This document shows, piece by piece, positions 23,120 through 54,116 of a stretch of 64,000 nt of DNA. Source of the DNA: an uncultured Candidatus Saccharibacteria bacterium (GTDB taxonomy: Bacteria; Patescibacteriota; WWE3; UBA101185; UBA10185); contig CAYNBT010000001.1 in NCBI GenBank assembly GCA_964396025.1, positions 109,271-173,270 of the forward strand. The letters run 5' to 3'. Below the pieces are notes generated by a model that had not been told where the DNA came from, ran no database searches, and saw nothing but the letters and a program-made list of their open reading frames with translations. A program made the position numbers and the translations under genes. The stretch's first letter is position 1; each line of letters opens with the position of its first letter.

Positions 23120-24677
23120 GAAATTTTAGCACTTTTGTCACAAAGTGTGCGCCATTTATTGATTGTGCGTATTCCCGTTCAAGAGAAAGATATGGATATT
23201 TACTTAGTTCAAATTCCATTGAAGTATTATGCTCATTTGTTACAACTACATATGTTGCATCAAATCCCTCTAAATCATCGTATGCAATATCCCCTGAATC
23301 AATCTTGGGATAGTAAATCGTACTACCGCAAACATTAGCCTTACCATAATTAACATTCCAATCAATTACGCTTGTTAAATCATTATGTACAACTACACCG
23401 CAACTATGTTCTTTTAGATAATTTCCTGCTAAAGAAACAACTAAATATATATCCTTATGGAGATGCACGGTGGCTAAGGACCATATTCCACATGAAAAAG
23501 CAGTCACAAGAAAGAAACTTCTAAATTTCTTGAAATATGCAGTGACAATAAGTAATAAATTGATAAATATCAGGATAGCAAAGATTTCTTTTTGCAACAC
23601 TAAAAATTGAAGCCTGTATTTATACTGCCCAACAATATATATACCTAAAGTAATCAATCCAATAAACAGAAAGGCATTATCTTTCTTGTTTTGTGAAAAA
23701 AAGTTTTCTATACCCAACGCAAGTAAGACAATCAAAAAGGGTACTACAGCAATAAACAGCCTGGGAATTGCAGCAGGCCACATAAGGATTAATGCCAGCT
23801 CAAGTGATAGGAAGAACAACACAGCTAAGTGTTGTGTAAAAAACTGTTTGATAACATTTCTGCCATTAAGTATAAAGGGTGCTGCTACAATAAACCCATA
23901 TATAAACAGTAACGATACTAAGTAAATCAATATTGTGTTGATATCGTAGACCCTACCGGACGGTTCTGCTAGATAGGAAGATTTAAGGGGGTTCCTAAGA
24001 AAAAAATACGGTCCTATTACAACTAAGAACCCAAGTACATATGTGCTCAACTGCCAAAAGGAATGGCGCAGTCTACGAAACAGATTCTTGATCCAAAGAT
24101 CCTGGTGACTATCAACAACGATACCCAACAATATTGCGAAATATAAGAGATAGCCTTCAAAACGCGTAAGAACTGCAAGACCTGCAACTAAACCCAGTGT
24201 AAAAGTTTGTACTAAAGTGTTTTTCTTCTTGAAACGGTAAAATATGAGAAACTCCACCATCACAAGTAATGTGAAAAATGCATCGGCCATGATTCTAAGT
24301 GACCAGTACATGTATACCGGATTTAGGACAAAAAGCATCAAGGCTATATGCATATACCTCTTGCTATCCGAGAATTTTCTGACAAGTAATGCGTATGTTG
24401 CAACCGAAGCTGCCCCTATACCTAACATAACTATTCTGCCCCAAACAACTGGATCTATGCCTTGGGGCCAACCTGACAAAAGCAGCGAATACAGCGGAGG
24501 GCGTTTTTCATCGGAAGGGTAGCTAAATTCTCGCAAATACTTGGCGGCGCGAAGAATTCTGTATGAATCACCCCACTCAACAGCATTAATATTTAACAAA
24601 GCAATGTGAATAAATAAAAATACGCAAAACCAAAGCAGAAATGGATTATCAATTAGCTTTTGAAAGTATTTTTTCAT
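23100..24677 (-). CDS. GT-C-fold membrane glycosyltransferase, ArnT/PMT (GT83/39)-like
   Basis: …SYPSDEKRPPLYSLLL… resembles the [DE]-K-PPL motif of the ArnT/PMT first loop; about 13 TM helices plus a soluble C-terminus. Confidence 0.55.
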   Translation of the reverse strand: MKKYFQKLIDNPFLLWFCVFLFIHIALLNINAVEWGDSYRILRAAKYLREFSYPSDEKRPPLYSLLLSGWPQGIDPVVWGRIVMLGIGAASVATYALLVRKFSDSKRYMHIALMLFVLNPVYMYWSLRIMADAFFTLLVMVEFLIFYRFKKKNTLVQTFTLGLVAGLAVLTRFEGYLLYFAILLGIVVDSHQDLWIKNLFRRLRHSFWQLSTYVLGFLVVIGPYFFLRNPLKSSYLAEPSGRVYDINTILIYLVSLLFIYGFIVAAPFILNGRNVIKQFFTQHLAVLFFLSLELALILMWPAAIPRLFIAVVPFLIVLLALGIENFFSQNKKDNAFLFIGLITLGIYIVGQYKYRLQFLVLQKEIFAILIFINLLLIVTAYFKKFRSFFLVTAFSCGIWSLATVHLHKDIYLVVSLAGNYLKEHSCGVVVHNDLTSVIDWNVNYGKANVCGSTIYYPKIDSGDIAYDDLEGFDATYVVVTNEHNTSMEFELSKYPYLSLEREYAQSINGAHFVTKVLKFHGYELN

Positions 24678-25842
24678 ATATTTGATTTATTTGGGCTGCC
24701 TTTGCATCCCAAGAGTAGCGTTGGGCAATCTTTTGAGTATCAACAAAGATGCTCGAGTCAACTACGTGCTTAATCTGTTCAGCTATCTTTTCGGGGGCTA
24801 GATCTTCTAAATAAACTAGACCTTCTATTACATCTTGCGCCTTAAATCCTGAAACCAGCGCAGGCACACCACAGGAAAGAACCTCCATCACAACCTTGGG
24901 AAAACCTTCAACTTTGGAAGGCAAAACAAAGATGTCTGCCGCCTGAATAGCAACCGGTATGGACGGGTAAGGCGTATATCCAATTTTTATAAAACGATCA
25001 GAAAGATTGAGTTCTCTTACGCGCTCGTTCAATCTCTCCATGTAAGCTTCGTCACCATCCCCCAATAATATTAATTTGTACTCGAGTGGTAAAAGTGCCA
25101 ATGCCTCTATAAGTAAATGGATGTTCTTTCTTTCAACAAGCGCACCATAATTCAAAATCACTTTATCGTGCGGGATAAGTCCCAACTCTTTGCGTGTCTT
25201 ATCTTGTTCGTCCGGTGTAATCTTTTTAAACAAGGCCGGATTAACTCCAGATTCAACAATATAACATTTTGCAGGATCTGTTTTGTAATATTTAATTGCG
25301 TCTGATCTTAGCTCTTCTCCCACAAAAATACATGCATCTGCAACGTCCGATGCGAGTTGGTTGGCAAAAATCTCAAGAGGCCAAGTAAGCATTCCAGATA
25401 CAAACTTGGGCTGCTCTCCTTTTTCCTTCATTTTCTCCCAACGGCTTTTTGCAATGATATGAAAGTGCGCTACTAAGGGTATCTTCAGTTCAGAACATTT
25501 AGGTAAAAAGTATTTAAGTAATTTCCTATAAAAAAAGATCCATATACCAAAATGCCCATGCGCATGTATCACATCTGGTCTGTTACTCAAACGCCAATAT
25601 AGATAGTAGATAAACATAGCAGGTGCGATAGTCAATGCAAGAGTTCCAGATATAGGCTCTCTAAAGAAAGTGCGGAGATTTACATTAGGAATACTTTCCG
25701 GCTTTCCACTGTTGGGCCAACTGCCACAGAACACTGTTATTTTGTGACCCAATCTGCTTTGTGCGGAAGTTACCTCAAATGGGTGAGGTACTAAACCCAA
25801 CCATGGAGGAGGCCATTCGTAACTAATTCTTAGAATATTCAT
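24649..25842 (-). CDS. Glycosyltransferase family 4
   Basis: Glyco_trans_4-like N-terminus; C-terminal …FVLPSKVEGFPKVVMEVLSCGVPALVS… (GT4 E-x7-E region). Confidence 0.75.
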   Translation of the reverse strand: MNILRISYEWPPPWLGLVPHPFEVTSAQSRLGHKITVFCGSWPNSGKPESIPNVNLRTFFREPISGTLALTIAPAMFIYYLYWRLSNRPDVIHAHGHFGIWIFFYRKLLKYFLPKCSELKIPLVAHFHIIAKSRWEKMKEKGEQPKFVSGMLTWPLEIFANQLASDVADACIFVGEELRSDAIKYYKTDPAKCYIVESGVNPALFKKITPDEQDKTRKELGLIPHDKVILNYGALVERKNIHLLIEALALLPLEYKLILLGDGDEAYMERLNERVRELNLSDRFIKIGYTPYPSIPVAIQAADIFVLPSKVEGFPKVVMEVLSCGVPALVSGFKAQDVIEGLVYLEDLAPEKIAEQIKHVVDSSIFVDTQKIAQRYSWDAKAAQINQIYEKILSKAN

Positions 25843-27028
25843 TCATAACCTCATTAAAAACTTGTTCGTATTTACTAATCATAACATCAAGCGTAAACAG
25901 TTGCTGAGCCTCTTGGCGACTATATGTTCCAAATTGTTTCCTAAGCTCAAAGCTCTGCTCTAAAAGGAGCATTTTGGTTTTTAGCTCCAAAAGATCTCCA
26001 GATTTCACTAGATATCCGTTTTTTTCACTTTCCACAGCATCAGAATTTCCGCCTTTGTCAGAAGCAATTACAGGTAAACCACAGAACATCGCCTCAACAA
26101 TAGTCATAGGAAATCCTTCAACTCGAAGCGTAGGAAGAACAAATATGTCCATTTTGACCAATTCCCCCATAACCTGCGAGTATGGAATAGTACCGTGGAA
26201 ATGTACTCTTGTCTCAATAGACAAAACATGCGCAAGCCTTTTTAGAGTCGCTAGTTCCGGACCAGCGCCAATGATATGAAGAAAAGCGTTCTTAAAACTG
26301 CCATCTGCAAAGGCTCGGAGAAGCACATGGACGCCTTTCGAAGAATCCAGTCTGCCCAAATAAACAAAATTCACTTTTTCAGAGGCAGAGGCAGAATAGT
26401 CTTTGGAAATAGCTGGAACTTTGACGCCGTTATGAATCACTACAATTTTGGAGGGACTCACAAAGGTTTCCTCAATAATACTTGTTTTGACATAGTTAGA
26501 AACCGCTACAAGTCTTGTAGATCCATGCACAAATTCGCGTTGGGTAAAAAAGAAAGCATAAAAGACATGTGGTAAATCTAACATCAATCTCAAAAATTCT
26601 TTTATCCCTGAAAAACTTTCCCATCGAGATTGAAATTCTCCCACTTTACTTCCGTGCAATATAGAAACTATCGGGACTCCAAGCTTTTCCTTGACTTTAA
26701 AGAGTCCCAATGCACCGGAACTCTGACTCAGTATCAGATCAAACTTTTCACTTGCTGTACGGCTAATGTAAGCTTCAATGGATTTTTGATTCCAGGTTTT
26801 TGAAAAAAGGGAGAATAAAAGATTGAAACCTCTTACTACACAAGGCACGAACACATACTCAACGTTATTTTCATGATATGAGGTAACGGTAAGATTGCGT
26901 TGAGGCGAGAAAACTACGATTTTGTGTCCTCTCAGGGCTAATCCTTCACACAAAAGCTTATTCTGAGTTTCAAACCCTCCATAACTCTTATGCAATGTAG
27001 TGTTTTTGATAAAGACAGCAATATTCAC
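25823..27028 (-). CDS. Glycosyltransferase family 4
   Basis: …YLGRLDSSKGVHVLLRAF…IFVLPTLRVEGFPMTIVEAMFCGLPVIASDKGGN…. Confidence 0.8.
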   Translation of the reverse strand: MNIAVFIKNTTLHKSYGGFETQNKLLCEGLALRGHKIVVFSPQRNLTVTSYHENNVEYVFVPCVVRGFNLLFSLFSKTWNQKSIEAYISRTASEKFDLILSQSSGALGLFKVKEKLGVPIVSILHGSKVGEFQSRWESFSGIKEFLRLMLDLPHVFYAFFFTQREFVHGSTRLVAVSNYVKTSIIEETFVSPSKIVVIHNGVKVPAISKDYSASASEKVNFVYLGRLDSSKGVHVLLRAFADGSFKNAFLHIIGAGPELATLKRLAHVLSIETRVHFHGTIPYSQVMGELVKMDIFVLPTLRVEGFPMTIVEAMFCGLPVIASDKGGNSDAVESEKNGYLVKSGDLLELKTKMLLLEQSFELRKQFGTYSRQEAQQLFTLDVMISKYEQVFNEVMNEYSKN

Positions 27029-27040
27029 ATATACATTGTA

Positions 27041-28348
27041 TCAAGAAAGGAGTAATTCTTGGAGTTGCTTAACGTTAGTATCAAGATGAAACATCTCTGA
27101 GGCTTTTTTAAATGCATGTTTGACCAAGCTTTCTCGTACAACATGATTATGCAACAAATTCTCAATCTGATCCGCAAGGGCATGCGAATCTTTTTGTGGA
27201 ATGACGATACCTGTTACATTGTGCTCAACTAGGTCTGTTATACTACCTGCGGATGTAGCAATTATGGGGATTTTGGCTAAAGCTGCCTCTATTACAACAG
27301 TCGGAACGCCATCCATATCTCCTTCATTTGTTTCAATACTTGGAAACACAAAAATGTCTGCAATTTTATAGTAATCAACCACTTGATCGAACGGAGTTCC
27401 CTTACCTTCACCATGAATAAAAACATTATCAGACAGTCCAAGCTCGTGTATTTGATCTTGTAATTCTTTGTACAGGGGCCCAGGGCCAACTATTTCTACC
27501 TGATGGTCTACGCCCCTACTCTTAAGTATCTTTGATGCTTCAATAACATATTTAATGCCTTTCTTCTCCACCAAACGTGTTCCACCCATAAATATTACAG
27601 GTCTTTGGGGTTTCACTAATCTCGAATCCCCCGCGAATATTTTCTCGTGATCAATACCGTGATAAATCAGTTTAACCTTTGGCTTTAACTCAAGAGGAAT
27701 TTGATCCACAACTGTTTGCCAGGTTCTTTTGTTACATATTGCTATGAACTTTGCATACTGTGCTTTTGTAGCAATAAGCGAATTATCAACTATGGCATCC
27801 TTAGCATGCGCAGAAATACTAAATGGAATATGCAAAACATGCGCAGCAACCATAGCAATTGTTGAGAAACTTGACAAAAAATGTACATGAATATGATCCG
27901 GCTTATACTCACTGAAAATCTTTGCATAGGCAACTCCTTTTAGCATGTAAAAAATTCGTGCCTTATGAAATCGACCAACAATGCTGGAATGATCTTCGTG
28001 TGCATTCTGAGCCCTAAGATTTAAGAACAGTGGTTCCTTGTCCGAACCAGATATCAACTTAAAAAGCTCGATTATTCTGCGTGGGCTAAAGAGAAGATAT
28101 TTGACAAAGGCGCTTATCGCAATACGCGCAGTAAGTCTTTGATATACAACAGCACGCCTTGCTAGTTCGGACATTGTACCGCTGGCAGGAGATAACGAGA
28201 GGATTCTGATATCCATTTGATCAAGTTCAAGGAGTTTAGTGATCTCACGCTCAATAAAGGTCTCAGTTAGACGTGGGAATTCTGGAACAAAGTACAAAAC
28301 TTTTTTCTTGCGTAAAGTAGGTTGCTTATTTTCCATTTTTTTCATCAT
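27041..28348 (-). CDS. Glycosyltransferase family 4
   Basis: …FMGGTRLVEKKGIKYVIEA…IFVFPSIETNEGDMDGVPTVVIEAALAKIPIIATSAGS…. Confidence 0.8.
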   Translation of the reverse strand: MMKKMENKQPTLRKKKVLYFVPEFPRLTETFIEREITKLLELDQMDIRILSLSPASGTMSELARRAVVYQRLTARIAISAFVKYLLFSPRRIIELFKLISGSDKEPLFLNLRAQNAHEDHSSIVGRFHKARIFYMLKGVAYAKIFSEYKPDHIHVHFLSSFSTIAMVAAHVLHIPFSISAHAKDAIVDNSLIATKAQYAKFIAICNKRTWQTVVDQIPLELKPKVKLIYHGIDHEKIFAGDSRLVKPQRPVIFMGGTRLVEKKGIKYVIEASKILKSRGVDHQVEIVGPGPLYKELQDQIHELGLSDNVFIHGEGKGTPFDQVVDYYKIADIFVFPSIETNEGDMDGVPTVVIEAALAKIPIIATSAGSITDLVEHNVTGIVIPQKDSHALADQIENLLHNHVVRESLVKHAFKKASEMFHLDTNVKQLQELLLS

Positions 28349-29696
28349 TCAATATTGCGTAAGGCCCGCTTTTACTTATGTGTTCACTACCATTGGTTTT
28401 TTTACCAATCGCAAAATAGGTAGCACCCGCATCCTCTATCTCTCTTTGATTAAGAATATTACGCCCATCAAAAACCATTTTTCCCGCCAGGTTTTTAATG
28501 ATTGAAGCATTCAAATTTCTAAATTCATCCCATGGGGTAAGAACACATAAAGCATCTACATCCTTAACAGCATCTGAAATATCGGTCGCATAATGTATCT
28601 GCCCATCTCCAAGCATCTTGCGAGCATTCTCCATAGCAGCGGGATCATATACGCGTAATGTTGCTCCCCTACCTCTCAACAATCTAACAAGTGCTACAGC
28701 AACTGAATCTCTTGTATCATCTGTGTTTTCCTTAAATGCCAAACCCAAGCATGCGAAAGTTTTACCCGAAAGGTTTTCCCCCATAGCATGAACGATTTTG
28801 CGCAAAAAGAAATGCTTCTGGATATCATTAACCTCCATGACACCACGTAAAAGCTTAAAGTCATATGCCTGATCTGTGGATGTTTTGTAAAGTGCAGCAA
28901 CATCTTTTGGAAAACAACTACCGCCGTAACCAATAGATGCGTTCAAAAACTTGGGTCCAATTCTTTTATCAAGCCCCATGCCCTTTGCGACGGTTGTGAC
29001 ATCGGCACCAGCACGCTCGCATATTTGGGCAATCTCATTTATGAAAGATATTTTTGTAGCCAAAAAAGCGTTAGAGGCATACTTAATCATTTCAGCTGAG
29101 CGCAAATCACATTCTACTAAGGGAGCATCCAGATGCGCATAAAGTCTTTTCATGATATCCATCGCCTTTTTAGATTCTGCTCCAACAACTGTCCTATCCG
29201 GATTACGCATATCTTCAATGGAATATCCCTCTTTTAAAAATTCGGGATTTGAGGCTACATCAAATTCAACGGAAGTGTCTAGAAGATTCTCTTTAACTAT
29301 TTTTTTTACGTACTCGTTAGTACCCACAGGAACAGTACTTTTTGTCACAATCACTTTGTAGGAGGTTAGGTTTCTGCCAATGTCTTGTGCTACTTTGGTT
29401 ACCGCAGTAAGATCTGCGGCACCTGTATCACCCTGAGGTGTTCCAACACATATAAACACTATTTCCGCATCTGACATCGCTTCTTTTAAGTTTGTGGTAA
29501 ATTTTAAGCGACCTTCGCTGATATTTTTTAGCACTACTGGAGCAAGATCGGGCTCATAGATAGGCATGATACCCTTTTTAATCTTTTCTACTTTAGCTGT
29601 ATCAATGTCGAGTCCAACGACATCATTACCCCAATCCGCAAATATTGCTGAACCAACTAAACCTACATATCCTGTGCCAATAACACAAAGTTTCAT
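28326..29696 (-). CDS. ugd: UDP-glucose 6-dehydrogenase (nucleotide-sugar dehydrogenase family)
   Basis: MKLCVIGTGYVGLVGSA… Rossmann N-terminus; catalytic GGSCFPKD motif. Start set at MKLCVIG (AAGGAG 5 nt upstream on the minus strand). Confidence 0.85.
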   Translation of the reverse strand: MKLCVIGTGYVGLVGSAIFADWGNDVVGLDIDTAKVEKIKKGIMPIYEPDLAPVVLKNISEGRLKFTTNLKEAMSDAEIVFICVGTPQGDTGAADLTAVTKVAQDIGRNLTSYKVIVTKSTVPVGTNEYVKKIVKENLLDTSVEFDVASNPEFLKEGYSIEDMRNPDRTVVGAESKKAMDIMKRLYAHLDAPLVECDLRSAEMIKYASNAFLATKISFINEIAQICERAGADVTTVAKGMGLDKRIGPKFLNASIGYGGSCFPKDVAALYKTSTDQAYDFKLLRGVMEVNDIQKHFFLRKIVHAMGENLSGKTFACLGLAFKENTDDTRDSVAVALVRLLRGRGATLRVYDPAAMENARKMLGDGQIHYATDISDAVKDVDALCVLTPWDEFRNLNASIIKNLAGKMVFDGRNILNQREIEDAGATYFAIGKKTNGSEHISKSGPYAILNDEKNGK

Positions 29697-29781
29697 AGGA
29701 CTCCTTATTGCACGCAATCAGTACAACCACGTGCGTTAAATAATTTACACACAATAACAAAAAGTAGCAAAAGACTGCATA

Positions 29782-30606
29782 TTAGTTTTTATTGTATTTT
29801 CCTCTGAGATCATTAAGTTTGACTTTTACAACATCTAAGAAATTATCAATCGAAGCTCTAATAGGAGGAACACGATTAGTCTTTACATATGTCCAAGAAA
29901 CGGGAATCTCTTTGGTTTTAAAACCCAACCTTTTGGCAATCACCAACACTTCTACGTCAAAAGCACTTACACGAGGACGTTTCGTTTCTGGTGTATTGTC
30001 GCCAAAAAGAATCATCCTTGAAAAGATTTCTGCGCAAGCATTTTGTGTAAACAGTTTAAAACCACATTGAGTGTCGTTTATCTTGGGTAACACCAATAAT
30101 CTAACCAAGAAATTAAATCCCCTTCCCATAATATGACGAATCAACGGCTCATTTTTTCTTAAAGCCCCTACTCCTTCGCGGGAGGCTATCACAACATCAT
30201 AATCATGCTCTTGCACCCATGTAAGAAGGCGCTTAAGTTCCTCGATGGGGGTTGCCATATCCGCATCGGCCATAAGTATATATTTTCCCCGAGAACTCAA
30301 CATGCCTGTTCTAACTGCTACACCTTTTCCTTTGTGTGGATTCTTTATCAAGTGGATTTCTGGATGATATATTGCGTAATTCTCCACGATCTCAGCAGTT
30401 TTATCGGCACTGCCATCATCTACAACTATTATTTCATAAGCAACCGGCGTAACTTTATCTGATGACGAATCCCGTATGCTGAAAGAATTCATAAAATTTA
30501 CTATCTGAGTGAGTGAGGCAGTGATACCTGATTCTTCATTGTAGGCAGGTATAACTACACTAATGTCTGGGAGTTCGTCTTGAATTAATGAATCTAATTT
30601 TTCCAT
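29782..30606 (-). CDS. GT2 polyprenol-phosphate sugar synthase-like (DPM1-like)
   Basis: ISVVIPAYNEESGI…IIVVDDGSADKT…ILMADADMATPIEEL. Confidence 0.75.
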   Translation of the reverse strand: MEKLDSLIQDELPDISVVIPAYNEESGITASLTQIVNFMNSFSIRDSSSDKVTPVAYEIIVVDDGSADKTAEIVENYAIYHPEIHLIKNPHKGKGVAVRTGMLSSRGKYILMADADMATPIEELKRLLTWVQEHDYDVVIASREGVGALRKNEPLIRHIMGRGFNFLVRLLVLPKINDTQCGFKLFTQNACAEIFSRMILFGDNTPETKRPRVSAFDVEVLVIAKRLGFKTKEIPVSWTYVKTNRVPPIRASIDNFLDVVKVKLNDLRGKYNKN

Positions 30607-31709
30607 ATAATTTTGCTATAAACTGTAAAGTTCCAAATTAAACCTATGACCACTCCTATCATAAACGCAACATTCGCAACGAGAATTGTATCAGAGAAGC
30701 GTGCCGTTGCAAGATTTACAAGAAAGCTTCTAAAAGCGATGGGCACATAGGATAGCACAATATAGGCAAGTAGTTTTTTTAAAGTCTGGGCATTTCCTTG
30801 AATCTTCCTGTCACTAAATGACCAATAGTTGTTAAGTGTGTATGTTGTCAACATAGCTAAAAATCCCGAGACCGCACTCGACATGCTTGAAGCAAATATC
30901 AAGTATCTAAGTAAGTTAAATAAACTGATATCCGTGAACATTCCAATAAATCCCACGATACAGAATTTAAAAAAGCTCTTGCTTTCATTATATCTCAACA
31001 TAAGAACCACTTTGATAGAATCTTGCAGATTGTTTCTTTCCATCTTTGAATCACCGCGATCCCGCAAACCAAAAGTTATGGGTATTTCAGTAATCTTGGC
31101 TCCAATCTTGTACATTTTAAATAGTAAATCAATCTTATAAGCAAAACCGCTAGATCTTACTGTAGTCAAATCAATCTTATCCAAGAAGCCTTTTACGCGA
31201 GAAGCTTTGTAACCCGATGTAAAGTCATTTATTGTATAAATACCTAGCACAACCTTAGAAAACAAACTGCCTCCCCAGCTCAACAACTTTCTGTGCAGCG
31301 ACCAATGCTTTGGAATAGATCCTCCGGAGATAAATCTTGATCCAATAACATAATCACTGCCCTTTTCTAACTCTGCAACGAAACGTCTTATATCTTGCGG
31401 GTCGTGTTGAAAATCAGCATCCATTTCGATCAAAACATCTGGTGAAAGATTACTTAGGGCGTAACTAAAACCATACATGTATGCAGCTCCTAAGCCTGCT
31501 TTCTTTTGCTCCGTTAAAAGCTGAAGAAATGGATACTTAGCAGATAATTCGGAAACGAGCTTTCCTGTACCATCTGGAGAATTACCATCCACAATTAAAG
31601 CAACAAATTGATGCTGAGGTAATCGAGAAAACTCAGTAGCAAGCACGGGCGCTAGCTTACTTACATTCTCGAACTCATTGTAAGTAGGAATAACAATTAC
31701 TATCTTCAT
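30594..31709 (-). CDS. GT2 (DPM1/GtrB-like) fused to C-terminal GtrA-like 4-TM domain
   Basis: KIVIVIPTYNEFENV…LIVDGNSPDGT…IEMDADFQHDP then FCIVGFIGMFTDISLFNLLRY…YTLNNYWSFSD (GtrA-family pattern). Confidence 0.75.
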   Translation of the reverse strand: MKIVIVIPTYNEFENVSKLAPVLATEFSRLPQHQFVALIVDGNSPDGTGKLVSELSAKYPFLQLLTEQKKAGLGAAYMYGFSYALSNLSPDVLIEMDADFQHDPQDIRRFVAELEKGSDYVIGSRFISGGSIPKHWSLHRKLLSWGGSLFSKVVLGIYTINDFTSGYKASRVKGFLDKIDLTTVRSSGFAYKIDLLFKMYKIGAKITEIPITFGLRDRGDSKMERNNLQDSIKVVLMLRYNESKSFFKFCIVGFIGMFTDISLFNLLRYLIFASSMSSAVSGFLAMLTTYTLNNYWSFSDRKIQGNAQTLKKLLAYIVLSYVPIAFRSFLVNLATARFSDTILVANVAFMIGVVIGLIWNFTVYSKIIWKN

Positions 31710-31726
31710 GTATGAGAATTATATAA

Positions 31727-31999
31727 TTAAAGGTTCAAAACACCTAGTAACAGCAAAAAAACGAACGAACCGAACAAGATGTATTCAAGAGCCACAAGTC
31801 TGTTAAGCCTACCCTCAAGGCGATGATGTATTATCCCCCATAACATGTAAAAGGTGCTACCAACACCTGCGAGTATTGTTTGTAAGACAGGCATGTTTTG
31901 AAAACGGAACATCAATAAAAGATATACAAACATCCCACAGATTAAAACCAAATAATGTATCAGATGCTTGTACTCACTCTGATTGTAATCGTGTTTCAT
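31727..31999 (-). CDS. Small 2-3 TM membrane protein, hypothetical
   Basis: 90-aa ORF, hydrophobic, translationally coupled (4-nt overlap) with the upstream CAP-domain gene. Confidence 0.35.
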   Translation of the reverse strand: MKHDYNQSEYKHLIHYLVLICGMFVYLLLMFRFQNMPVLQTILAGVGSTFYMLWGIIHHRLEGRLNRLVALEYILFGSFVFLLLLGVLNL

Positions 32000-32886
32000 A
32001 ATACCTTTCCTGGATTAACTACAAACAACAAACTCATTAGTACCACTATCAAATAGAAAATGTGAGCAAGAGTATGCCCTGTGAATTTTGGTATGGAATG
32101 TCTTTTTGTATACCAAATATCTAGTGCAAGTAATATCAATACAAATGAAACAAAAAGTACCGCTAGATATTTTGATACAACTGCTATATCTACTATCACA
32201 TCGTTGAGCCCCTGAAGCTTGTATTTGTTGTATCTAGCTTCGGCAGCAGAATCAGCAGCTGAAGCAAGCTCATACTTAGAGAGCAATGCTTCTTCATCCT
32301 GCAAAGTTGCTATTAATGAAGGGTTTCTGGGCCTTCCAAACATTTGTACAACTAAAGTTGTTTCATAACCCTCTAGTACACCGTTCACAACCGCAAAGCC
32401 AATCTCATCGTAGTTTGCGTTGAGCAGATTATCTCTATGTGTGGGAGATTTGTACCAAGCATCAACCACGGCTCGAGAATCATGGAAATTTTTGGCAAGA
32501 TTCTCACCCGCGTAAGTGTAATCATAATTTTCATCAAGTATAAATCCCCAAGGTTCAGTCCCATCGGGAGCGATGTGTGCCCAATAGTTGTTAAGGAACA
32601 TGTGTGCGGCCTTCTTTTCTGCGGCATTTGTAAGTGATGGATTTAACCTCAAACGTGATAAACCGTGTTCCGCGCGAATACTGTTTGTCTCTTGAAGTAG
32701 TTCTTTTACAGCAATACTTGATGTAAAGCCCAAAACTCCAGGGGAAACCTTAACGGACATGGTAGCTAAGAACGAAAATAAAACCAGAAAAAGGCTGTAC
32801 ATAAGAAATGCTTTAGGTTGCAAAAGTACAGCTCTACTTCTTTTTACAGGATCTGGTACAAAATGGTGTTTAATTTTCCTAGGCAT
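31996..32886 (-). CDS. CAP/SCP/PR-1-like domain protein with N- and C-terminal TM helices
   Basis: …GENLAKNFHDSRAVVDAWYKSPTHRDNLLNANYDEIGFAV… matches the CAP-domain (YkwD-like) signature; first gene of the minus-strand operon. Confidence 0.55.
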   Translation of the reverse strand: MPRKIKHHFVPDPVKRSRAVLLQPKAFLMYSLFLVLFSFLATMSVKVSPGVLGFTSSIAVKELLQETNSIRAEHGLSRLRLNPSLTNAAEKKAAHMFLNNYWAHIAPDGTEPWGFILDENYDYTYAGENLAKNFHDSRAVVDAWYKSPTHRDNLLNANYDEIGFAVVNGVLEGYETTLVVQMFGRPRNPSLIATLQDEEALLSKYELASAADSAAEARYNKYKLQGLNDVIVDIAVVSKYLAVLFVSFVLILLALDIWYTKRHSIPKFTGHTLAHIFYLIVVLMSLLFVVNPGKVL

Positions 32887-32945
32887 TGAAATTAATTATA
32901 CTGGTCCTGAGAATTTTCGAAAGAGGTTGGCACTAGACTATACGT

Positions 32946-33509
32946 TTGATTATGTATAATTTATGCATGCTAACAATTAATGACATTGCCGAGAGAGGCA
33001 CAAGCTGGATTCACAAAGATTTAGAATTGCGACAAAGTCCCATACACGGTTATGGACTATTCGCATCAAAAGAAATACCTGTAAACACATTGGTAGCGGT
33101 GTTTGGTGGAAAGGTTTACACAGCAGAGGAAATCTCTAACCTACCAGACGATTCTTTTGTTAAAGACGTAGCAACGCAACTAAACAATGATTTTTTCTTA
33201 GGTCCACTTAATGAGAACGATGTTGAACGAGGCTTCTTTATCAATCATAGATGTGAACCAAACGCTAGAATAAAAAACTCCATATTTCTTGTCACTATAA
33301 AGAGTTTAGTACCTGATGAAGAACTAACATTCGACTATGCACATTCCCATAACAAACAGATAAATATGCAATGCAGTTGTGGGGCAAAGAGTTGTAGAAA
33401 AATAATAAGAAATGATGATTATCTTAATCCAGAATACGCAAGTAAAAACATGGAGTATTTTGTAGAATGGCTAAGAGAACTAGTAGTGAAGCAACAGCCT
33501 TTACTGTAA
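32946..33509 (+). CDS. SET-domain protein (putative protein-lysine methyltransferase)
   Basis: GYGLFASKEI…FGGKVYT… (SET N-region), FINHRCEPNA (the NHxCxPN SAM-binding motif), ELTFDY, and a post-SET Cys cluster CSCGAKSCRK. The true start is probably the internal ATG at 32967. Confidence 0.7.
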   Translation: MIMYNLCMLTINDIAERGTSWIHKDLELRQSPIHGYGLFASKEIPVNTLVAVFGGKVYTAEEISNLPDDSFVKDVATQLNNDFFLGPLNENDVERGFFINHRCEPNARIKNSIFLVTIKSLVPDEELTFDYAHSHNKQINMQCSCGAKSCRKIIRNDDYLNPEYASKNMEYFVEWLRELVVKQQPLL

Positions 33510-33515
33510 AAAAAT

Positions 33516-33557
33516 AGACTGCACCTCATGTTTTTCATGTAGTTGCAGTCTTTTTCT
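33516..33557. terminator. Rho-independent terminator hairpin (AGACTGCA…TGCAGTCT + TTTTTCTT), bidirectional
   Basis: 8-bp stem at 33516-33523/33544-33551, T-run after it on the plus strand and an A-run before it (a U-run on the minus strand). Lies between convergent genes. Confidence 0.5.
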
Positions 33558-33586
33558 TGGCGCTTGTACAAAACAAGACACACCTC

Positions 33587-34042
33587 CTAGTCTAAGTAGG
33601 CAAATGCCCTGTTAGCAAGGAATGGAACCGACGCCAACGCAAGAAGTAGCAAAAGCAAATACCCATAAAAACCTAACGGCAGGGGTGTCCGATTCTCAAC
33701 AAAGGCCCGTATGAAAAATACGACAAAGATCTGCCCTACTTCAAAAACGGAGCCAATAGAAGCCCACATACCTATTGTCGCACTACCTCCTAGTAGTCCA
33801 AAAAATGAAACGCTAAGCAAATAAAACCCAATCCAGTAAAAGAGTCCGGACAAAAATGCATTCAACATTATTGCCCCATAGTTTAGTTTAGCGATATCTC
33901 CATGATCGACTAAACGAAGTACATGATTCTCTCCACTGCCCCAGCGATAACCCGAGAATGCCACCGAGGCAAATCCGCAAAGGGCTATCGCAATCAGCAT
34001 CCAACGCGACATTACAGCAAGCTCACCTAATGCAACTTTCAT
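33587..34042 (-). CDS. 4-TM membrane protein, hypothetical
   Basis: Start set at MKVALGEL… with AAGGAGG 7 nt upstream. Local GC is visibly higher than in neighbouring genes. Confidence 0.4.
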   Translation of the reverse strand: MKVALGELAVMSRWMLIAIALCGFASVAFSGYRWGSGENHVLRLVDHGDIAKLNYGAIMLNAFLSGLFYWIGFYLLSVSFFGLLGGSATIGMWASIGSVFEVGQIFVVFFIRAFVENRTPLPLGFYGYLLLLLLALASVPFLANRAFAYLD

Positions 34043-34138
34043 CACTAACCTCCTTGAGTTATGTTTTCCAAATGTTAACATACATACCCACTGTATTCAA
34101 ACTATAGGGCCTTGACACAGTTATGCTACAATATTTGC

Positions 34139-34558
34139 ATGCAGAACAAAGAGCGTAGTTTCTTTACAAAATTCGGACCACATCTAATCTTTGACGGTTA
34201 TGGAGCAAACCCTAATCTTCTAAACAACATGGAGCTGTGTTTTGACGCGCTAAACATGCTTGCAAAACTTGCTGGAATGCGAAAAATGATGGAACCAATA
34301 GTTATTAAATCTGAAGGAAATCTCACTCTGGGCGGAAAGGATCCTGGGGGTTTCTCTGGATTTGTAATAATTCAGGAATCACATATAAGCCTTCATACGT
34401 TTGTGAAAAGAAAATTTATTACCGTAGACCTATATTCCTGCAAGGAATTTGATCCCGAAAGCGCAATCAACTATCTAAAGGAAGCTTTCGAAGTAAAAGA
34501 AGCGGATATTGTTAAACTGGACAGAGGCCTTAAATATCCAACTGAGAACCTCATTTAG
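34139..34558 (+). CDS. speH: S-adenosylmethionine decarboxylase proenzyme, small pyruvoyl-dependent (SpeH/class 1b) type
   Basis: …FSGFVIIQESHISLHTFVKRKFITVDLYSCKEF… matches the AdoMetDC self-cleavage region (E-S-H…H-T-[WF]-P/V…D-[VL]-[FY]-[ST]-C). Start at MQNKERS. Confidence 0.7.
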   Translation: MQNKERSFFTKFGPHLIFDGYGANPNLLNNMELCFDALNMLAKLAGMRKMMEPIVIKSEGNLTLGGKDPGGFSGFVIIQESHISLHTFVKRKFITVDLYSCKEFDPESAINYLKEAFEVKEADIVKLDRGLKYPTENLI

Positions 34559-34617: not shown

Positions 34618-35637
34618 TCAGCTAAAAAGCTTGCTTAAAGAATGTTTTTTTCGCGTTTTCCAGTCGCCTTTGTGATAAGCATAACTTGATAGTAACGGCA
34701 GAACAGATGTTGCTTCAGCAAATACCATTTGCTCAAACGAATTTGACACTTTACCCCAAGACATTGCTTCCTTAAGTGTAGAGCTAGAACAGGCACCATC
34801 ACGAGAATCTGCAACAGTAATTTGTATTGCATATTTATGCATTGGAACCTCTTTACCTAGCAATTCCGCACAAACTACGGTATCCTGCACAAAATTCTTA
34901 GGTACACCGCCACCAATCATTAGTAAGCCAGTTTCCTCAACAGACATTTTGATATGTGTAAGTTCTCTAAAATCCTTAACAGAATCAATGGAAACATGAG
35001 ACAAGGGGCGAGCATACTGATGCTTAACTAAACCAAATCCAGCACTACTATCGGAAAAAGCAGGACAAAAAATCGGGACATCGTGTTCATAAGCTAACTG
35101 TACGAGTGAATTCTTTTTCTTTGAATTTCTTGTCAAATACTCACCCATTGCAACAATAAATTCGCGGGAGGAGTAAGGCTTTGGGGACAAACTGTCGGCA
35201 ATTTCTTGTATAGCATTGTCACAAGCCTGTAGATTGTCTTCATCGATAAAAGTATCGTATATTCTGTCTATGTAAAGCTCTCTTAGCTGCTGATCATCAA
35301 TATACGGTGTACCTATATAATGCTTAAATCCTAAAGCCTCAAAAAAATCCATATCAACGATACTTGCACCAGTAGCCACAACAGCATCCACCATGTTATG
35401 CGCTATAAGGTCAGAGTAGATATTCATACAACCTGCGGCACTAGTGCTACCGGCCAGAGACAATATAACTACACAAGAAGGATCTTTGAGCATATCAGCA
35501 TAGATTTGAGCGGCGCGACCAAGATCTCGCGCAGTGAAGCCCATATCTTGCATACCTTCAATAATTTTGGTTGAATCAAATGACTTGAAATCTATGTGTT
35601 TGACTTCTCTTGAGAGGAGTTCGTGTTTTTTGAGCAT
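34618..35637 (-). CDS. Deoxyhypusine synthase-like protein (DHS/homospermidine-synthase family)
   Basis: About 340 aa; …ILSLAGSTSAAGCMNIYSDLIAHNMVDAVVATGASIVDMDFFEALG… resembles the DHS NAD-binding core. Start at MLKKHELL. Confidence 0.55.
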   Translation of the reverse strand: MLKKHELLSREVKHIDFKSFDSTKIIEGMQDMGFTARDLGRAAQIYADMLKDPSCVVILSLAGSTSAAGCMNIYSDLIAHNMVDAVVATGASIVDMDFFEALGFKHYIGTPYIDDQQLRELYIDRIYDTFIDEDNLQACDNAIQEIADSLSPKPYSSREFIVAMGEYLTRNSKKKNSLVQLAYEHDVPIFCPAFSDSSAGFGLVKHQYARPLSHVSIDSVKDFRELTHIKMSVEETGLLMIGGGVPKNFVQDTVVCAELLGKEVPMHKYAIQITVADSRDGACSSSTLKEAMSWGKVSNSFEQMVFAEATSVLPLLSSYAYHKGDWKTRKKHSLSKLFS

Positions 35638-35716
35638 ATTACAGTGTTCTACACTAACAGACAGACAAATGCAACTATATTGACATAACATAATTTAAGT
35701 TAGAAGATTATGTTGA

Positions 35717-38144: not shown

Positions 38145-38418
38145 TTACTTCACTTCATCCTTCAAGCTTTTACCTGCCTTGAATGCTGGAGTTTTTCCTG
38201 CTGGGATGTGTAATGGAGCACCGGTTTGTGGGTTTCTTCCCATTCTTGCGGCTCTGGATCTAACTTCGAAAGTTCCGAAGCCAGTCCAAGTAACTTTCTC
38301 GCCTCTTGCGAGCGCGGAAGTAATTACTTCTACCAAAGCGTCTAGAGCTTTTCCAGAATCTACTTTAGTAAGACCAGCTTTATCAGCTACCATACTTATT
38401 AAGTCTGTTTTTGTCATT
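38145..38418 (-). CDS. hup: HU-family nucleoid-associated DNA-binding protein
   Basis: [18 protein letters not shown]…[42 protein letters not shown]. Start trimmed to MTKTD (AGGGGGG about 10 nt upstream). Confidence 0.85.
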
Positions 38419-38485
38419 GCTAAGCACCCCCCTTCATTACATTGCCTTATGGCAAATAAATATTTCAAAAAAATTAACTGATTTC

Positions 38486-39262
38486 TTAATCGTAGTTCTT
38501 ATCAAATCGTTCAATACTATTCTTCTGTGTATCAATAAGAACACTACGAAAAACCTTACGGCCTTTTTCTTCCCACTCGAACCGCTGATTCATACCTGTT
38601 GTATAAAAATTTATAATGATATCTTTTTGAACTCCTAAAACTGAATCTATATTCCCGCACATACCCACATCACTAACAAATAGAGTTCCCTTGGGCAATA
38701 CATGATTATCACACGTCGGAACATGCGTATGAGTACCTACTACACAATCAACACGACCATCAAAATAAAAGCCAAAAGCATACTTTTCACTCGTGGCTTC
38801 AGCATGAAAGTCTACAAAGGATGCATCATATTTTTCGGAAACGGAAACCTCACTTAATATTTTGTCTACAGTGGTAAAAGGATCGTTAATGCGTTCGTTT
38901 AGGAATGTTCTGCCCATAACATTTATAAGTAATAGTTTATCATTTTTCCTTGTTTTAACAACAACAAATCCCTTACCTGGAGTGCCCTCTGGATAGTTAG
39001 CAGGTCTTATAAGTGGAATATTATCGATGATGTCTTCAAGTTCCGGCCTCCAGAACACATGATCACCGCTTGTGAAGTAATCAACACCCGCATCTTGCAT
39101 TTCAAGTAACATATCCTTTGTTACACCCCTACCATGTGCAAGATTTTCTGCGTTAGCAATCACAATATCAATATCTTCTTTGGAAACTATATCTGGAAGT
39201 GCCCGCTTAACAGCGTCACGACCGGGGCGAGCAACAATATCACCTATAAAAAGTATTTTCAT
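38486..39262 (-). CDS. ymdB: YmdB-family metallophosphoesterase (2',3'-cNMP phosphodiesterase)
   Basis: [18 protein letters not shown]…[13 protein letters not shown]…FTSGDHVFW…GTHTHVPT is the TIGR00282 pattern. Confidence 0.8.
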
Positions 39263-39473: not shown

Positions 39474-41042
39474 TTACTTAGCTGTCTCAGAGACCCTAGT
39501 TTCTCTTATCACAGTAACCTTAACAACACCTGGATACGTTTGTTCGAGTTCAATCTTTTTAGCTATTTCTCGCGCAATCAAAGCTGCTGAATCATCGTCC
39601 ACTCTACTTGGAATAACGAAAACCCGAACTTCTCTACCGGCTGAAATCGCATAAGCCTTATCTACACCATCAAAAGATGTCGCAGCAGCCTCAAGATCCT
39701 TCATACGCTTCACATATGATTCATAATCTTCTGATCTTGCTCCAGGGCGCGCACCGCTAATGTGATCTGCCAAAGCCACTACAGAAGACTCGAGTGAGCT
39801 AAACGGCCGATCTTCATGGTGTTCAGCAACACAATTTACAACTTTTTCATCGATTTTGTATTTTTTCAGAAGTTCCACACCAAGTTGAACATGCGTTCCT
39901 TCTTCATCTGTAACAACCTTACCAATGTCGTGGAGTAAACAACCCATTTTTACTACGTATACGTCTAAACCTAATTCGGTCGCTAATGCTGCACCAATCC
40001 TAGTCTCCTCAAGTGTATGCTCTATAAGGTTTTGGCCATACGAAAACCTATACTTAAATCGACCTAGCATTTGTATAAGCTCTTTGGGCAAATCGTATAT
40101 ACCAACGCGGTGGCATAAGTTATCGCCTTCCTTAAACATAAGGTGTTCTATCTCTTTCTGTGTCTTATCTATAGTTTCTTCGATCTTTACAGGCTGAATC
40201 CTGCCATCCTTCATTAATCTTTCAAGTGCTGTTTTGGCTATTTCGCGTCGAACCGGATCAAAAGAAGATATAATGATTTCTCCAGGTGAAGTGTCCAGCT
40301 CTAGCTCTACGCCAGTAAGCTCTTCAAACATTTTTATGTTGCGTCCTTCTTTACCAATGATACGACCCTTTATGTCTTCGTCTGGTATCTTAACCTTAGA
40401 AGTTGTGTATTCAACAACATAATCAGTAGCTCCAAAACGCATAGCATCTATCAATAACTCTTGGGCTTTCTTTTCTATATCCTTTTTTATTTCTTCTTCA
40501 ATTTGGCGAATTCTCTTGCCTTTTTCTGCAGAAAGGTCTCTATCAAAAGAAACTAGCAACTCCTGACGAGCTTCTTCTTTAGTCAAAGATGCGGTTTTTT
40601 CCAACTTATCTTGTTGTTGTTTGTATAGCTGATCTATTTGATCTTTTCGCTTTTCTATCGCGTCTTTCAACTCTCTAACCTGTCTAGCCTTATTTTCTAT
40701 CTCTTTTTCTTTCTCTTCCAGTTTAGATTTTTGCACTGCAAGTGATTTTTCTAGCTCAGCAGCCTTATCTTTAACTTCAGCTAACCTCTTGTCAGCTTCG
40801 GATTTGGACTGCATAACCTCATTTTTAGCCTCAAAGATGATCTCCTTGGCTTTTGCACGAGCTTCAAACACAATTTTCTCTTTAAGAGAATATTCCTCAA
40901 TTATTTTTTCTGGAGATAGTTGTGGCAGGGGTGCCTCAGAAGAATCATTCGCAGCTCTTTTTGACTTATTTGAAAAATAATAAGCGAGTGAAGTAGATAA
41001 ACCTACAGTTACAATGAAAAATATTATTTGTTGCATAAACAT
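39474..41042 (-). CDS. rny: Ribonuclease Y
   Basis: N-terminal TM, long coiled-coil (KE-rich), KH domain IIGKEGRNIKMFEELTGVEL, HD domain LLHDIGK. Confidence 0.9.
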   Translation of the reverse strand: MFMQQIIFFIVTVGLSTSLAYYFSNKSKRAANDSSEAPLPQLSPEKIIEEYSLKEKIVFEARAKAKEIIFEAKNEVMQSKSEADKRLAEVKDKAAELEKSLAVQKSKLEEKEKEIENKARQVRELKDAIEKRKDQIDQLYKQQQDKLEKTASLTKEEARQELLVSFDRDLSAEKGKRIRQIEEEIKKDIEKKAQELLIDAMRFGATDYVVEYTTSKVKIPDEDIKGRIIGKEGRNIKMFEELTGVELELDTSPGEIIISSFDPVRREIAKTALERLMKDGRIQPVKIEETIDKTQKEIEHLMFKEGDNLCHRVGIYDLPKELIQMLGRFKYRFSYGQNLIEHTLEETRIGAALATELGLDVYVVKMGCLLHDIGKVVTDEEGTHVQLGVELLKKYKIDEKVVNCVAEHHEDRPFSSLESSVVALADHISGARPGARSEDYESYVKRMKDLEAAATSFDGVDKAYAISAGREVRVFVIPSRVDDDSAALIAREIAKKIELEQTYPGVVKVTVIRETRVSETAK

Positions 41043-41196: not shown

Positions 41197-41703
41197 CTAG
41201 TCAACCAAGTCGATACTGTCAACCACGCGGGCTATTATGTTGTAGTCAAAGCCCTTCTGGTACAAATATTTGAACAATTTGGATTTTTTGTTAGGAGGCT
41301 TCAAAAGTCGCTGTTTTTTTAAAGCAAGCTTTAAAATGGCTTTCTCTTGTAGGTCGTCGCCACTTAGACGAGCCATGTTTGCTTCTATCAGTTCAGGCGA
41401 TACACCCCTTTGAAGAAGTTTTTTTCGAACCATGTAAGGACTTATGGCCTTTTCTGACAACAGTATTGAATCTATATATTTGCTTACATAACTGGCGTCA
41501 TCAATAAGCCGCATGGTTCTTAAACGATCCTGTGTATGCTCTATCAAAGTGTCTGCGGATTCAACAAGTTCAGGAAACTTCTTGCGTAGTATTTGCAAAA
41601 GTTTCACATTTATCTCATAAGCAGTCCTGTCCTTTATGGAAAGATAATCTATGATTCTTTCGAAAAGATAGGCTTGAGCTCTTTTTTCAGTATCATTCAT
41701 CAA
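41197..41703 (-). CDS. recX: Regulatory protein RecX
   Basis: 168 aa, three-helical-repeat pattern, immediately downstream of recA with an 11-nt overlap. Confidence 0.7.
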
Positions 41704-42787
41704 GTTCTTGTTCTACCTCTACAGAGCGTGAGGTGCTTTCTTCTGCTCCTACCTGAAAATGCAATGCACCATCGTTTTTCATCGCAGCTCTGATCTTTTT
41801 GTCGATTTCCTCGTATGTCTTCTTGTTAGTCCTAAGTGTTTGCTTTGAAGCTTCCCTGCCCTGTCCAATCTTTTCTCCCCCAAATTCATACCAAGCACCA
41901 CTCTTTTTTACTATATTCATCTCTACACCAACATCAAGTAAATTCCCTTCCTTACTTATTCCTTCATTAAACATGATATCGAATTCCGCTACTCTAAATG
42001 GAGGGGCCACCTTGTTCTTTACCACTTTAACTTGCGCTTTTATACCGGATATATCATTACCATCCTTGATAGATTGTATCTTCCTTATTTCAAGGCGAAC
42101 TGAAGCATAAAATTTTAGCGCTCTTCCCCCAGACGTGGTTTCAGGGTTTCCAAACATAACACCTATCTTTGTGCGGAGTTGATTCGTGAATATAACTGTG
42201 CAATTGGACCTGCTTACAGAACCGGTAATTCTTCTTAGGGCTTGGCTCATAAGCCTAGCCTGCAAAGCAATATGACTGTCGCCAATATCACCCTCTATCT
42301 CAGCTTTTGGCACCAAAGCTGCCACTGAATCAATTGCAATTACATCTACAGCGTTTGATCTGATTAATGTTTCCGCTATATCCAACGCCTGCTCACCTGT
42401 ATCGGGTTGGGAAACCAAAAGATTTGTTACATCAACGCCAGTCTTTTCTGCGTAAATCGGGTCAAAGGCATGCTCAGCATCTATCAAAGCTGCGGTACCA
42501 CCAAGTTTTTGTGATTCCGCAATGATATGCTGCACCAGGGTAGTCTTTCCAGAAGATTCAGGACCATAAATTTCAACTATTCTGCCTCGTGGAACTCCTC
42601 CTACCCCAAGGGCGATATCCAAAGCTATAGAACCAGTGGGTATAACTGTAATATCCTTGGTTTCGGTCTTATCCCCCAAACGCATGATAGAACCCTTCCC
42701 AAAGGACTTCTCAATTTGATCTAGGGCAGATTTTAGAGCAATATCTCTATTTTTTTGTTCTTTATCATTTTTTACACTTGCTGACAT
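41693..42787 (-). CDS. recA: Recombinase RecA
   Basis: …[30 protein letters not shown]… (Walker A), …IIFINQLR…-type L2 region. Confidence 0.95.
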
Positions 42788-54108: not shown

Positions 54109-54116
54109 AAGGATTA

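Follow-up and report, generated by a model that had tools for sequence, protein, structure and literature searches.

The function of most prokaryotic SET proteins has stayed open since they first turned up in genomes, and the few that have been studied were tried on histones or nucleoid proteins. One such protein is encoded in the stretch of DNA analysed here, a 64-kb window (64,000 nucleotides in all, from contig CAYNBT010000001.1 of an uncultured Candidatus Saccharibacteria bacterium). Its gene lies on the forward strand at 32967-33509. What does the enzyme methylate? The initial annotation of this DNA, made from the sequence alone, recognized the SET domain and offered two possibilities: the histones of a host, or the cell's own nucleoid proteins, with HU as a substrate to try.

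We find that members of the same SET family adjoin, or are fused to, enzymes of polyamine synthesis in several phyla. The linkage and the fusions suggest a substrate class other than histones or HU, and we tentatively propose that the protein N-methylates a polyamine or its precursor. The SET protein alone would be routine; its linkage with polyamine genes makes it a candidate for a new functional variant. In the literature that we searched, no paper connects prokaryotic SET proteins with polyamine clusters.

A SET-domain protein with a post-SET cysteine motif

The open reading frame at 32946-33509 on the forward strand is confirmed in the window. The coding sequence that we assign within it specifies a protein of 180 residues and holds all the signatures that the annotation had picked out (GYGLF, FINHRCEPN, ELTFDY and a post-SET cysteine cluster):

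32967-33509, forward strand: SET-domain methyltransferase coding sequence, 180 residues and stop, identified by Pfam, homologues and an AlphaFold2 (AF2) model
33048-33338, forward strand: SET core, Pfam PF00856 match, residues 28-124
33045-33062, forward strand: HGYGLF motif, residues 27-32 of the 180-residue form
33237-33263, forward strand: FINHRCEPN motif, residues 91-99
33321-33338, forward strand: ELTFDY motif, residues 119-124, with Phe at the Phe/Tyr-switch position and then the catalytic-type Tyr124
33372-33395, forward strand: post-SET CxCx4C motif (CSCGAKSC), residues 136-143, with C136, C138 and C143
33414-33491, forward strand: family-specific C-terminal extension with helices at residues 155-164 and 167-175, diverged here (DDYLNPEYASKNMEYFVEWLRELV)

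The annotation had made its identification depend on a hit by the SET profile and on the invariant catalytic residues. PF00856 matches with 44 bits (E=3.2e-11; gathering cut-off 22.4), over profile positions 1-104 of 105. Tyr124 and the His-Cys motif NHRC are both present and conserved: N93, H94, C96, C138 and C143 are invariant across 72 relatives, Y124 and C136 are conserved in at least 90% of these, and G30 and D123 are invariant or nearly so (72-150 relatives). Chance falls far short of explaining the motifs. The AF2 model (pLDDT 94.1, pTM 0.88) has the SET beta-fold with its C-terminal pseudoknot. Compared with P0002, a 76%-identical homologue on contig L002, the ratio of nonsynonymous to synonymous substitution rates (dN/dS) is ~0.07, with dS near saturation. 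On the strength of the Pfam match, the conserved residues and dN/dS, we conclude that the SET gene is real, intact and under purifying selection. Its product is predicted to be an active, stand-alone SET-fold N-methyltransferase that depends on S-adenosylmethionine (SAM) and carries a post-SET zinc cluster, which C136, C138 and C143 should form together with C96 of NHRCEPN.

Which known SET domains does the protein resemble? Among solved structures the best sequence match is the SET domain of MLL1 (E=1.3e-11), followed by those of SETD2 and ASH1L. In the MLL1 alignment, NHRCEPN, ELTFDY and the CxCx4C cysteines (C..C.C....C) pair with their MLL1 counterparts. Having CxCx4C and the Cys of NHxCxPN, the protein carries the marks of the post-SET subclass (MLL, SETD2, SUV39 type). 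It differs from MLL/Set1, SETD2 and ASH1L proteins in lacking their partner-binding and chromatin-reader modules, and from the MLL/Set1 type in having two extra C-terminal helices that are conserved solely in the prokaryotic family. It also differs from MLL1 in that it belongs to an organism without histones and that Phe122 takes the place of the switch tyrosine with which it aligns in sequence. We take this tyrosine to be Tyr3942 of MLL1 and presume that Phe122 corresponds to Phe281 of DIM-5. By analogy, a phenylalanine at the switch position would permit multiple methylation.

The family shares a module of ~170 residues made up of SET, post-SET and a conserved C-terminal segment with the consensus ITxxDWKxPELQxxYxGYFSxYLxxKI. 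This segment folds into two helices in the AF2 model, and matches to solved SET domains stop short of it, near query residue 154-160. Over its whole length the window protein can be aligned with 72 family members, its C-terminal motif having diverged (DDYLNPEYASKNMEYFVEWL).

SET methyltransferases had been described as sporadic in bacteria, which is fair as a description and an understatement of how many there are. A word-indexed protein search returned six relatives. An exhaustive search of clusters at 50% identity gave 4,086 with E<=1e-3, 797 with E<=1e-10 and 8 with E<=1e-30, and in that search no relative apart from P0002 exceeded ~44% identity. Among GTDB species representatives, at least 562 have a relative, and these include Saccharibacteria, Chloroflexota, Actinomycetota, Proteobacteria, Omnitrophota, Methanoregula, and Woese-, Aenigm- and Micrarchaeota. 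The subfamily comes in single and tandem-double forms, found in bacteria of the candidate phyla radiation (CPR), DPANN archaea, Chloroflexota, Actinomycetota, methanogens and others. Tandem double-SET proteins of ~350 residues, both halves full-length, make up about 45 of the best 150 representatives (for example P0007, P0009-P0012 and L039 7941-9008). Together with P0002, the window protein forms a long branch that is about equidistant (0.62-0.69) from all other members.

Polyamine genes beside SET genes

What lies next to these genes? Two genes near the SET gene of the window belong to polyamine-synthesis families:

34139-34558, forward strand: SpeD-like pyruvoyl decarboxylase, candidate arginine decarboxylase SpeDA, 0.6 kb from the SET gene
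34618-35691, reverse strand: SpeY, a deoxyhypusine-synthase homologue, 1.1 kb from the SET gene

The SpeD-like protein matches PF02675 (E=1.9e-26) and TIGR03330 (78.6 bits, cut-off 75.65); its likely start is the internal ATG at 34139, and the promoter-like TGCTACAAT ends 6 nt upstream. SpeY matches PF01916 (E=2.5e-95) and the NCBIfam model NF002699 (575 bits, cut-off 500). SpeY joins two agmatines into 1,9-bis(guanidino)-5-aza-nonane (bis-guanidino-homospermidine) in the homospermidine pathway (PMC13625781). SpeD homologues that occur with speY and without speE are arginine decarboxylases, in CPR bacteria and DPANN archaea among others (PMC10407285). The same paper uses a proline to separate SpeD homologues. 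Where SpeE-linked copies keep the Pro of HTWPE, the window protein lacks it (ESHISLHTFV), which suggests that it fits this criterion, if the proline meant is the one that we interpret it to be. Because a SpeD-like protein without the HTWPE proline adjoins SpeY, the sequence suggests an agmatine-dependent homospermidine pathway in this CPR genome. Iterative profile searches found no agmatinase or ureohydrolase gene in the window.

The SpeD-like/SpeY pair matches the speDA-speY-speB clusters described from CPR bacteria and DPANN archaea (Li et al., JBC 2023, 2026), as does the cluster of locus L017 below. What sets our loci apart is the SET gene: the papers on those clusters mention no SET or methyltransferase gene in them, and the one methyltransferase in PMC10407285 is a plant putrescine N-methyltransferase.

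Is this neighbourhood peculiar to the window? We took 160 loci picked solely for their similarity in SET, of which GTDB genomes and JGI metagenomes supplied 80 each, and identified neighbours by iterative profile search with the SpeD-like, SpeE, SpeY/deoxyhypusine synthase (DHS) and arginase families. In 15 of the 160 loci (13 without two arginase-only loci) a polyamine-family gene lies no more than 3.5 kb from the SET gene; one locus has such a gene farther away, although nearly the same amount of sequence was sampled near (797 kb) as far (754 kb). With two fusion loci that were fetched on purpose included, the count becomes 17 near against 1 far (binomial test, p ~1e-4). The commonest specific neighbour family is SpeD-like, with 14 loci including the window. 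Linked SET genes fall into at least eight well-separated SET lineages, from Omnitrophota, Saccharibacteria, Woesearchaeota, Gammaproteobacteria and the CPR genome of the window, and inherited gene order alone is therefore a hard explanation to sustain. A polyamine neighbour marks a subset of the family and is not its defining feature. The linked loci are arranged as follows:

L022, L103 and L102: speD-speE-(335-residue saccharopine-dehydrogenase-C-like protein)-SET, genes overlapping or abutting, stop and start codons overlapping
L135: speD-speE-SET directly
L128: speD-speE, with the SET gene ~1 kb further on
L084 (P0013), L090 and L148: stand-alone SAM decarboxylase (AdoMetDC), directly followed by a SET::SpeD-like fusion
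L085 (P0123): SpeE::SET fusion, then AdoMetDC, on one contig
L017 (Woesearchaeota): SET, speD-like, a 302-residue gene, and an agmatinase-SET-DHS operon with a second SET gene, followed by metK on the opposite strand
L061 (Saccharibacteria): agmatinase, with SET 4 nt later
L146: SET, DHS, speD-like
L039 (a gammaproteobacterium): double SET divergent from an operon of ornithine/arginine decarboxylase, DHS and agmatinase

Fusions of SET with a SpeD-like domain occur in three diverged lineages. Among 1.84 billion representatives, P0013 ranks eighth as a match to the window protein. The fused SpeD-like domain (QLIETSLVSGHF...VYLDIFSC) appears to carry the Gln, Thr, Phe and Tyr that are diagnostic of an ornithine-decarboxylase-type SpeD, as we interpret PMC10407285.

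Two further proteins sit inside these clusters. The 335-residue protein between speE and SET (L022 2091-3101, L103 981-1985, L102 8989-10029, and also L132) is translationally coupled, occurs in four loci, and has a weak match to the saccharopine-dehydrogenase C-terminal domain and none in NCBIfam; it may be another uncharacterised polyamine enzyme. The 302-residue protein of L017 (9172-10080) weakly matches the C-terminal domain of phosphatidylglycerol lysyltransferase.

Candidate substrates of the SET protein

How might a SET domain come to act on a polyamine? Its active site is a narrow channel that fits the four-carbon aliphatic amine of lysine, and agmatine, putrescine, cadaverine, homospermidine and spermidine all present a lysine-like amine group. 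Because relatives adjoin or are fused to polyamine-synthesis genes, we propose that the SET protein N-methylates a polyamine or its precursor, and not a histone or nucleoid protein; we give this proposal somewhat less than an even chance. The SpeD-like arginine decarboxylase would supply agmatine, SpeY would turn it into bis-guanidino-homospermidine, and a ureohydrolase would yield homospermidine. A terminal amino group of the amine, resembling the lysine side chain, would then enter the lysine channel of the SET domain and gain one to three methyl groups. The broader claim is that the whole prokaryotic SET subfamily (~800 clusters at 50% identity) consists of N-methyltransferases for polyamines or their precursors, the window gene tailoring the agmatine/homospermidine pathway. 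It is possible and, like the narrower one, a little more apt to fail than to hold.

For diatoms, Michael is said by later papers to have put forward a fusion hypothesis of this kind in 2011 (FEBS Lett 585:2627). As cited in two papers, diatom AdoMetDC-aminopropyltransferase-histone-methyltransferase fusions are described as of bacterial derivation, with a proposed role in N-methylation of long-chain polyamines (PMC12029483, PMC6356823), and in a diatom SET genes are co-expressed with these fusion genes (bioRxiv 10.1101/2020.11.23.393678). Together with diatom BacSET proteins, the fusions are among the closest known systems. Set side by side by description, the diatom and prokaryotic systems share the association of AdoMetDC, an aminopropyltransferase and a histone-type methyltransferase. 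They differ in that the diatom proteins are eukaryotic, multi-domain and hypothetical in function, whereas the prokaryotic link is mostly by operon. Moreover, in the prokaryotic fusions SET is joined to SpeE or to a SpeD-like domain of the ornithine-decarboxylase type, and the window context is the agmatine/SpeY homospermidine route.

Several observations weigh against a polyamine substrate. The SET gene of the window is probably its own transcription unit, and a gene on the opposite strand separates it from speD. Placement of the window protein in a polyamine-linked subclade failed on account of its long branch. About 87% of the relatives' loci with adequate flanks, several of them with flanks of 10 kb, have no polyamine gene nearby. 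No further SpeE::SET fusion appeared among the 120 best matches to P0123, where SpeE dominates. In sequence and in fold alike, the closest solved relatives are MLL/Set1-type protein-lysine methyltransferases, and characterised prokaryotic SET proteins methylate proteins in vitro (PMC3980110). Finally, we found no literature report of N-methylated homospermidine in bacteria. The contexts of the nearest single-domain relatives (P0008, P0014, P0023 and P0126) are uninformative, on contigs of 0.8-3 kb.

A protein substrate is nearly as likely as a polyamine. The enzyme would then be a protein-lysine methyltransferase for a protein of its own cell, such as HU, a ribosomal protein or a translation factor, and its polyamine neighbourhood would reflect shared use of SAM, shared regulation or a protein substrate within the pathway. 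We think this quite possible, if rather less than evenly balanced: besides the resemblance to MLL/Set1, SETD2 and ASH1L in sequence and fold and the scarcity of polyamine neighbours among most relatives, the gene for P0003 is divergent from that for ribosomal protein S10, and the window does contain the HU gene that had been reported there (PF00216, E=2.6e-33). There are also enzymes that behave in this way. Go1-SET of Methanosarcina (substrate MC1-alpha), cpnSET/NUE of Chlamydia, BaSET, RomA and LegAS4 are, like the window protein, small prokaryotic SET enzymes, and Go1-SET and cpnSET methylate chromatin proteins of their own cells, MC1-alpha and Hc1 (PMC3980110). The window locus differs from these in having no MC1- or Hc1-type neighbour and no secretion or eukaryote-like features, a comparison in which sequences were matched through LegAS4-type models alone. 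What does a protein substrate leave out? No nucleoid, ribosomal or translation-factor family recurs beside SET genes in the 160 loci. HU, the substrate suggested at the outset, loses ground in particular: six genes and 4.6 kb separate hup from the SET gene in the window, and HU is never a recurrent neighbour in the other loci. Fusions to two polyamine enzymes and membership of polyamine operons in distant phyla would go unexplained. Clustering through shared use of SAM is a weaker alternative, because it leaves unexplained the fusions with a decarboxylase domain that does not use SAM.

Free amino acids come next, and we regard them as unlikely substrates. The protein might N-methylate lysine, ornithine or arginine before decarboxylation by the SpeD-like enzyme, or S-methylate methionine as BurB of Burkholderia thailandensis does (PDB 9L4T). 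Similarity to BurB (E=7.4e-5) extends over residues 98-155 only, in the C-terminal half, and is weaker than that to MLL-type SET domains. BurB performs S-methylation and is associated with genes for dimethylsulfoniopropionate (DMSP) and malleicyprol, whereas the SET gene here has a polyamine context and a proposed role in N-methylation; no DMSP or bur-cluster genes were seen in the window. Another reading gives the SET domain the chemistry of spermidine synthase: it would transfer aminopropyl from decarboxylated SAM where AdoMetDC occurs without SpeE. We know of no other use for decarboxylated SAM, and in L084, L090 and L148 a SET::SpeD-like fusion (ornithine-decarboxylase type) comes after AdoMetDC, while up to 17 kb of sequence there shows no SpeE. 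Five other loci, however, pair SpeE with a SET gene and one fuses the two, the SAM-binding and catalytic motifs are canonical, and SpeE may sit elsewhere in the genomes concerned; the SET fold, moreover, offers no known precedent for such chemistry, and the idea is most improbable.

Nor do we see much room for a secreted effector that acts on host histones in the manner of Chlamydia NUE or Legionella RomA and LegAS4. The RecA protein of the window shares 73-84% identity with many RecA proteins from metagenomes, and its named relatives belong to the Patescibacteria group, mostly to candidate division WWE3, with some Saccharimonadales and Nomurabacteria. By RecA, then, the genome is placed in Patescibacteria/CPR, closest to named WWE3 sequences. 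Known partners and hosts of these organisms are prokaryotes, bacteria or archaea. The suggestion of a small, AT-rich, possibly host-associated genome was reasonable for a CPR member with GC content of ~0.35-0.43 across the window, but partners of this kind make a histone-targeting effector unlikely. The protein reaches 18.3 bits with the LegAS4 model (NF043024, AnkI/LegAS4), whose cut-off is 550; it consists of one domain, with no ankyrin or other additions; its N-terminus has no hydrophobic signal-like stretch (by inspection of the sequence, no formal secretion-signal predictor having been run); and free-living Chloroflexota, Actinomycetota and methanogens commonly have members of the family. 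The proposed role on host histones hardly survives these points, and nothing specific speaks for it or for a role on HU.

What would follow if the SET protein does N-methylate amines? The hypothesis is concrete and cheap to test, and it comes from operon and fusion links with SpeD, SpeE, SpeY and agmatinase-type genes. If true, the substrate range of the SET fold would extend to free aliphatic amines, and a tailoring step would be added to the agmatine/SpeY homospermidine pathway. New methylated polyamines would be expected in CPR and DPANN organisms with minimal metabolism and in uncultured microbes. In prokaryotes the family would also match the module that has been proposed to methylate the long-chain polyamines of diatoms, and it might be the source of that module. 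If false, the protein would be an ordinary small SET lysine methyltransferase, of modest interest.

Transcription of the SET gene and its surroundings

Where does the gene begin and end? The relevant elements are these:

32955-32960, forward strand: TATAAT -10 box of the SET gene with TG directly before it, at -12 to -7 relative to the A of ATG 32967
32946-32966, forward strand: in-frame upstream extension (TTG 32946, ATG 32952), probably promoter DNA and not coding
32895-32900, reverse strand: TATAAT of the divergent CAP-domain gene, 8 nt upstream of ATG 32886
33516-33559, either strand: hairpin AGACUGCA...UGCAGUCU with an A-run before and a U-run after, starting 7 nt past the stop codon

A start at ATG 32967, with TATAAT close upstream, had been put forward already, and comparison with the sister contig L002 bears it out. 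P0002 begins at the equivalent Met, and its contig keeps the 9-mer ATGTATAAT, then exactly 6 nt and ATG. The 6-nt spacer itself differs (TTATGC in one, TCTAAT in the other); if translated, both of its codons would differ nonsynonymously (LC against SN), in proteins with 76% overall identity. Because of the P0002 start, the conserved ATGTATAAT and the diverged spacer, we take 32967 as the start and 32946-32966 as promoter. The longer reading frame from TTG 32946 or ATG 32952, chosen by the gene caller for P0001, is disfavoured by the same comparison. No Shine-Dalgarno (SD)-like motif was found upstream of the SET start, and no sigma-70 -35 box at 16-18 nt; TTGGCA sits 22 nt upstream. As the -10 box ends 6 nt before the ATG and an SD sequence is lacking, the SET mRNA is probably leaderless.

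The pattern recurs. A perfect TATAAT stands 7-9 nt before the ATGs at 32886, 31709, 54108 and 56368, and a box matching at least five of six positions lies 4-10 nt upstream of 9 of the 58 annotated starts in the window; for ATG trinucleotides as a whole the figure is 4.5%. Perfect or near-perfect -10 boxes stand 6-9 nt ahead of many start codons, among them those at 32895-32900, 31718-31723, 54116-54121 and 56378-56383 on the reverse strand and at 34127-34132 on the forward strand. Few genes, 17 of 58, have an SD-like motif. This genome may often use mRNAs that are leaderless or have a very short leader.

The hairpin beyond the stop codon folds as RNA with -18.5 kcal/mol (z = -3.2 against shuffles). 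A scan for consensus terminators missed it, its inner part exceeding the loop limit of the scan, and an Rfam scan of the window matched no RNA family. Judged from its sequence, it is likely a bidirectional intrinsic terminator between the SET gene and a convergent membrane-protein gene. Because it probably terminates both, we read the SET gene as a single-gene transcription unit. The nearby genes are as follows:

31996-32886, reverse strand: CAP-domain gene heading the glycosylation operon; one N-terminal and two C-terminal hydrophobic (predicted membrane) segments
23100-32886, reverse strand: glycosylation operon with CAP/SCP-domain, DUF5656, GT2-GtrA, GT2, UDP-glucose dehydrogenase and three GT1-type genes
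33587-34081, reverse strand: 164-residue predicted membrane protein, convergent with the SET gene
38145-38468: HU gene (hup), open reading frame with a probable Met start near 38417
38486-39262, 39474-41042, 41197-41703 and 41693-42787, reverse strand: four consecutive open reading frames

The SET gene abuts the glycosylation operon in the opposite orientation, as had been noted; the two are divergent, with an intergenic gap of 80 bp. The gene order of the operon is also present on Logan contig L001. The 164-residue membrane protein has no Pfam or NCBIfam match, and an 84%-identical partial copy adjoins the SET gene in the sister lineage on L002. Of the four consecutive reading frames, the last is RecA, identified by Pfam RecA domains and the names of homologues; the other three are presumably YmdB-like, RNase Y-like and RecX-like, a guess from their N-terminal sequences.

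Other neighbours and partners turn up in the family. P0050 (802 residues) is a double SET fused to a Kdo-transferase domain, and P0069 (280 residues) joins SET to a fragment of a type II/IV secretion ATPase, which may be an artefact of assembly or gene calling. An EamA transporter adjoins P0126. A PurD-like ATP-grasp protein of ~435 residues lies just upstream of SET in five loci, as a second recurrent context; in L041 a DapF-like gene comes between the two. A 195-residue membrane protein and a protein of ~270 residues with no family match recur beside SET in several metagenome contigs. The positions are:

PurD-like ATP-grasp protein: L041 5842-7930, L095 7662-8969, L091 6673-7968, L151 5324-6688, L061 1518-2840
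195-residue and ~270-residue neighbours: L110 7601-9008, L104 8837-9685, L109 332-1792, L119 238-1104, and L122

Two of the contigs with these last neighbours also carry a SpeD-like gene.

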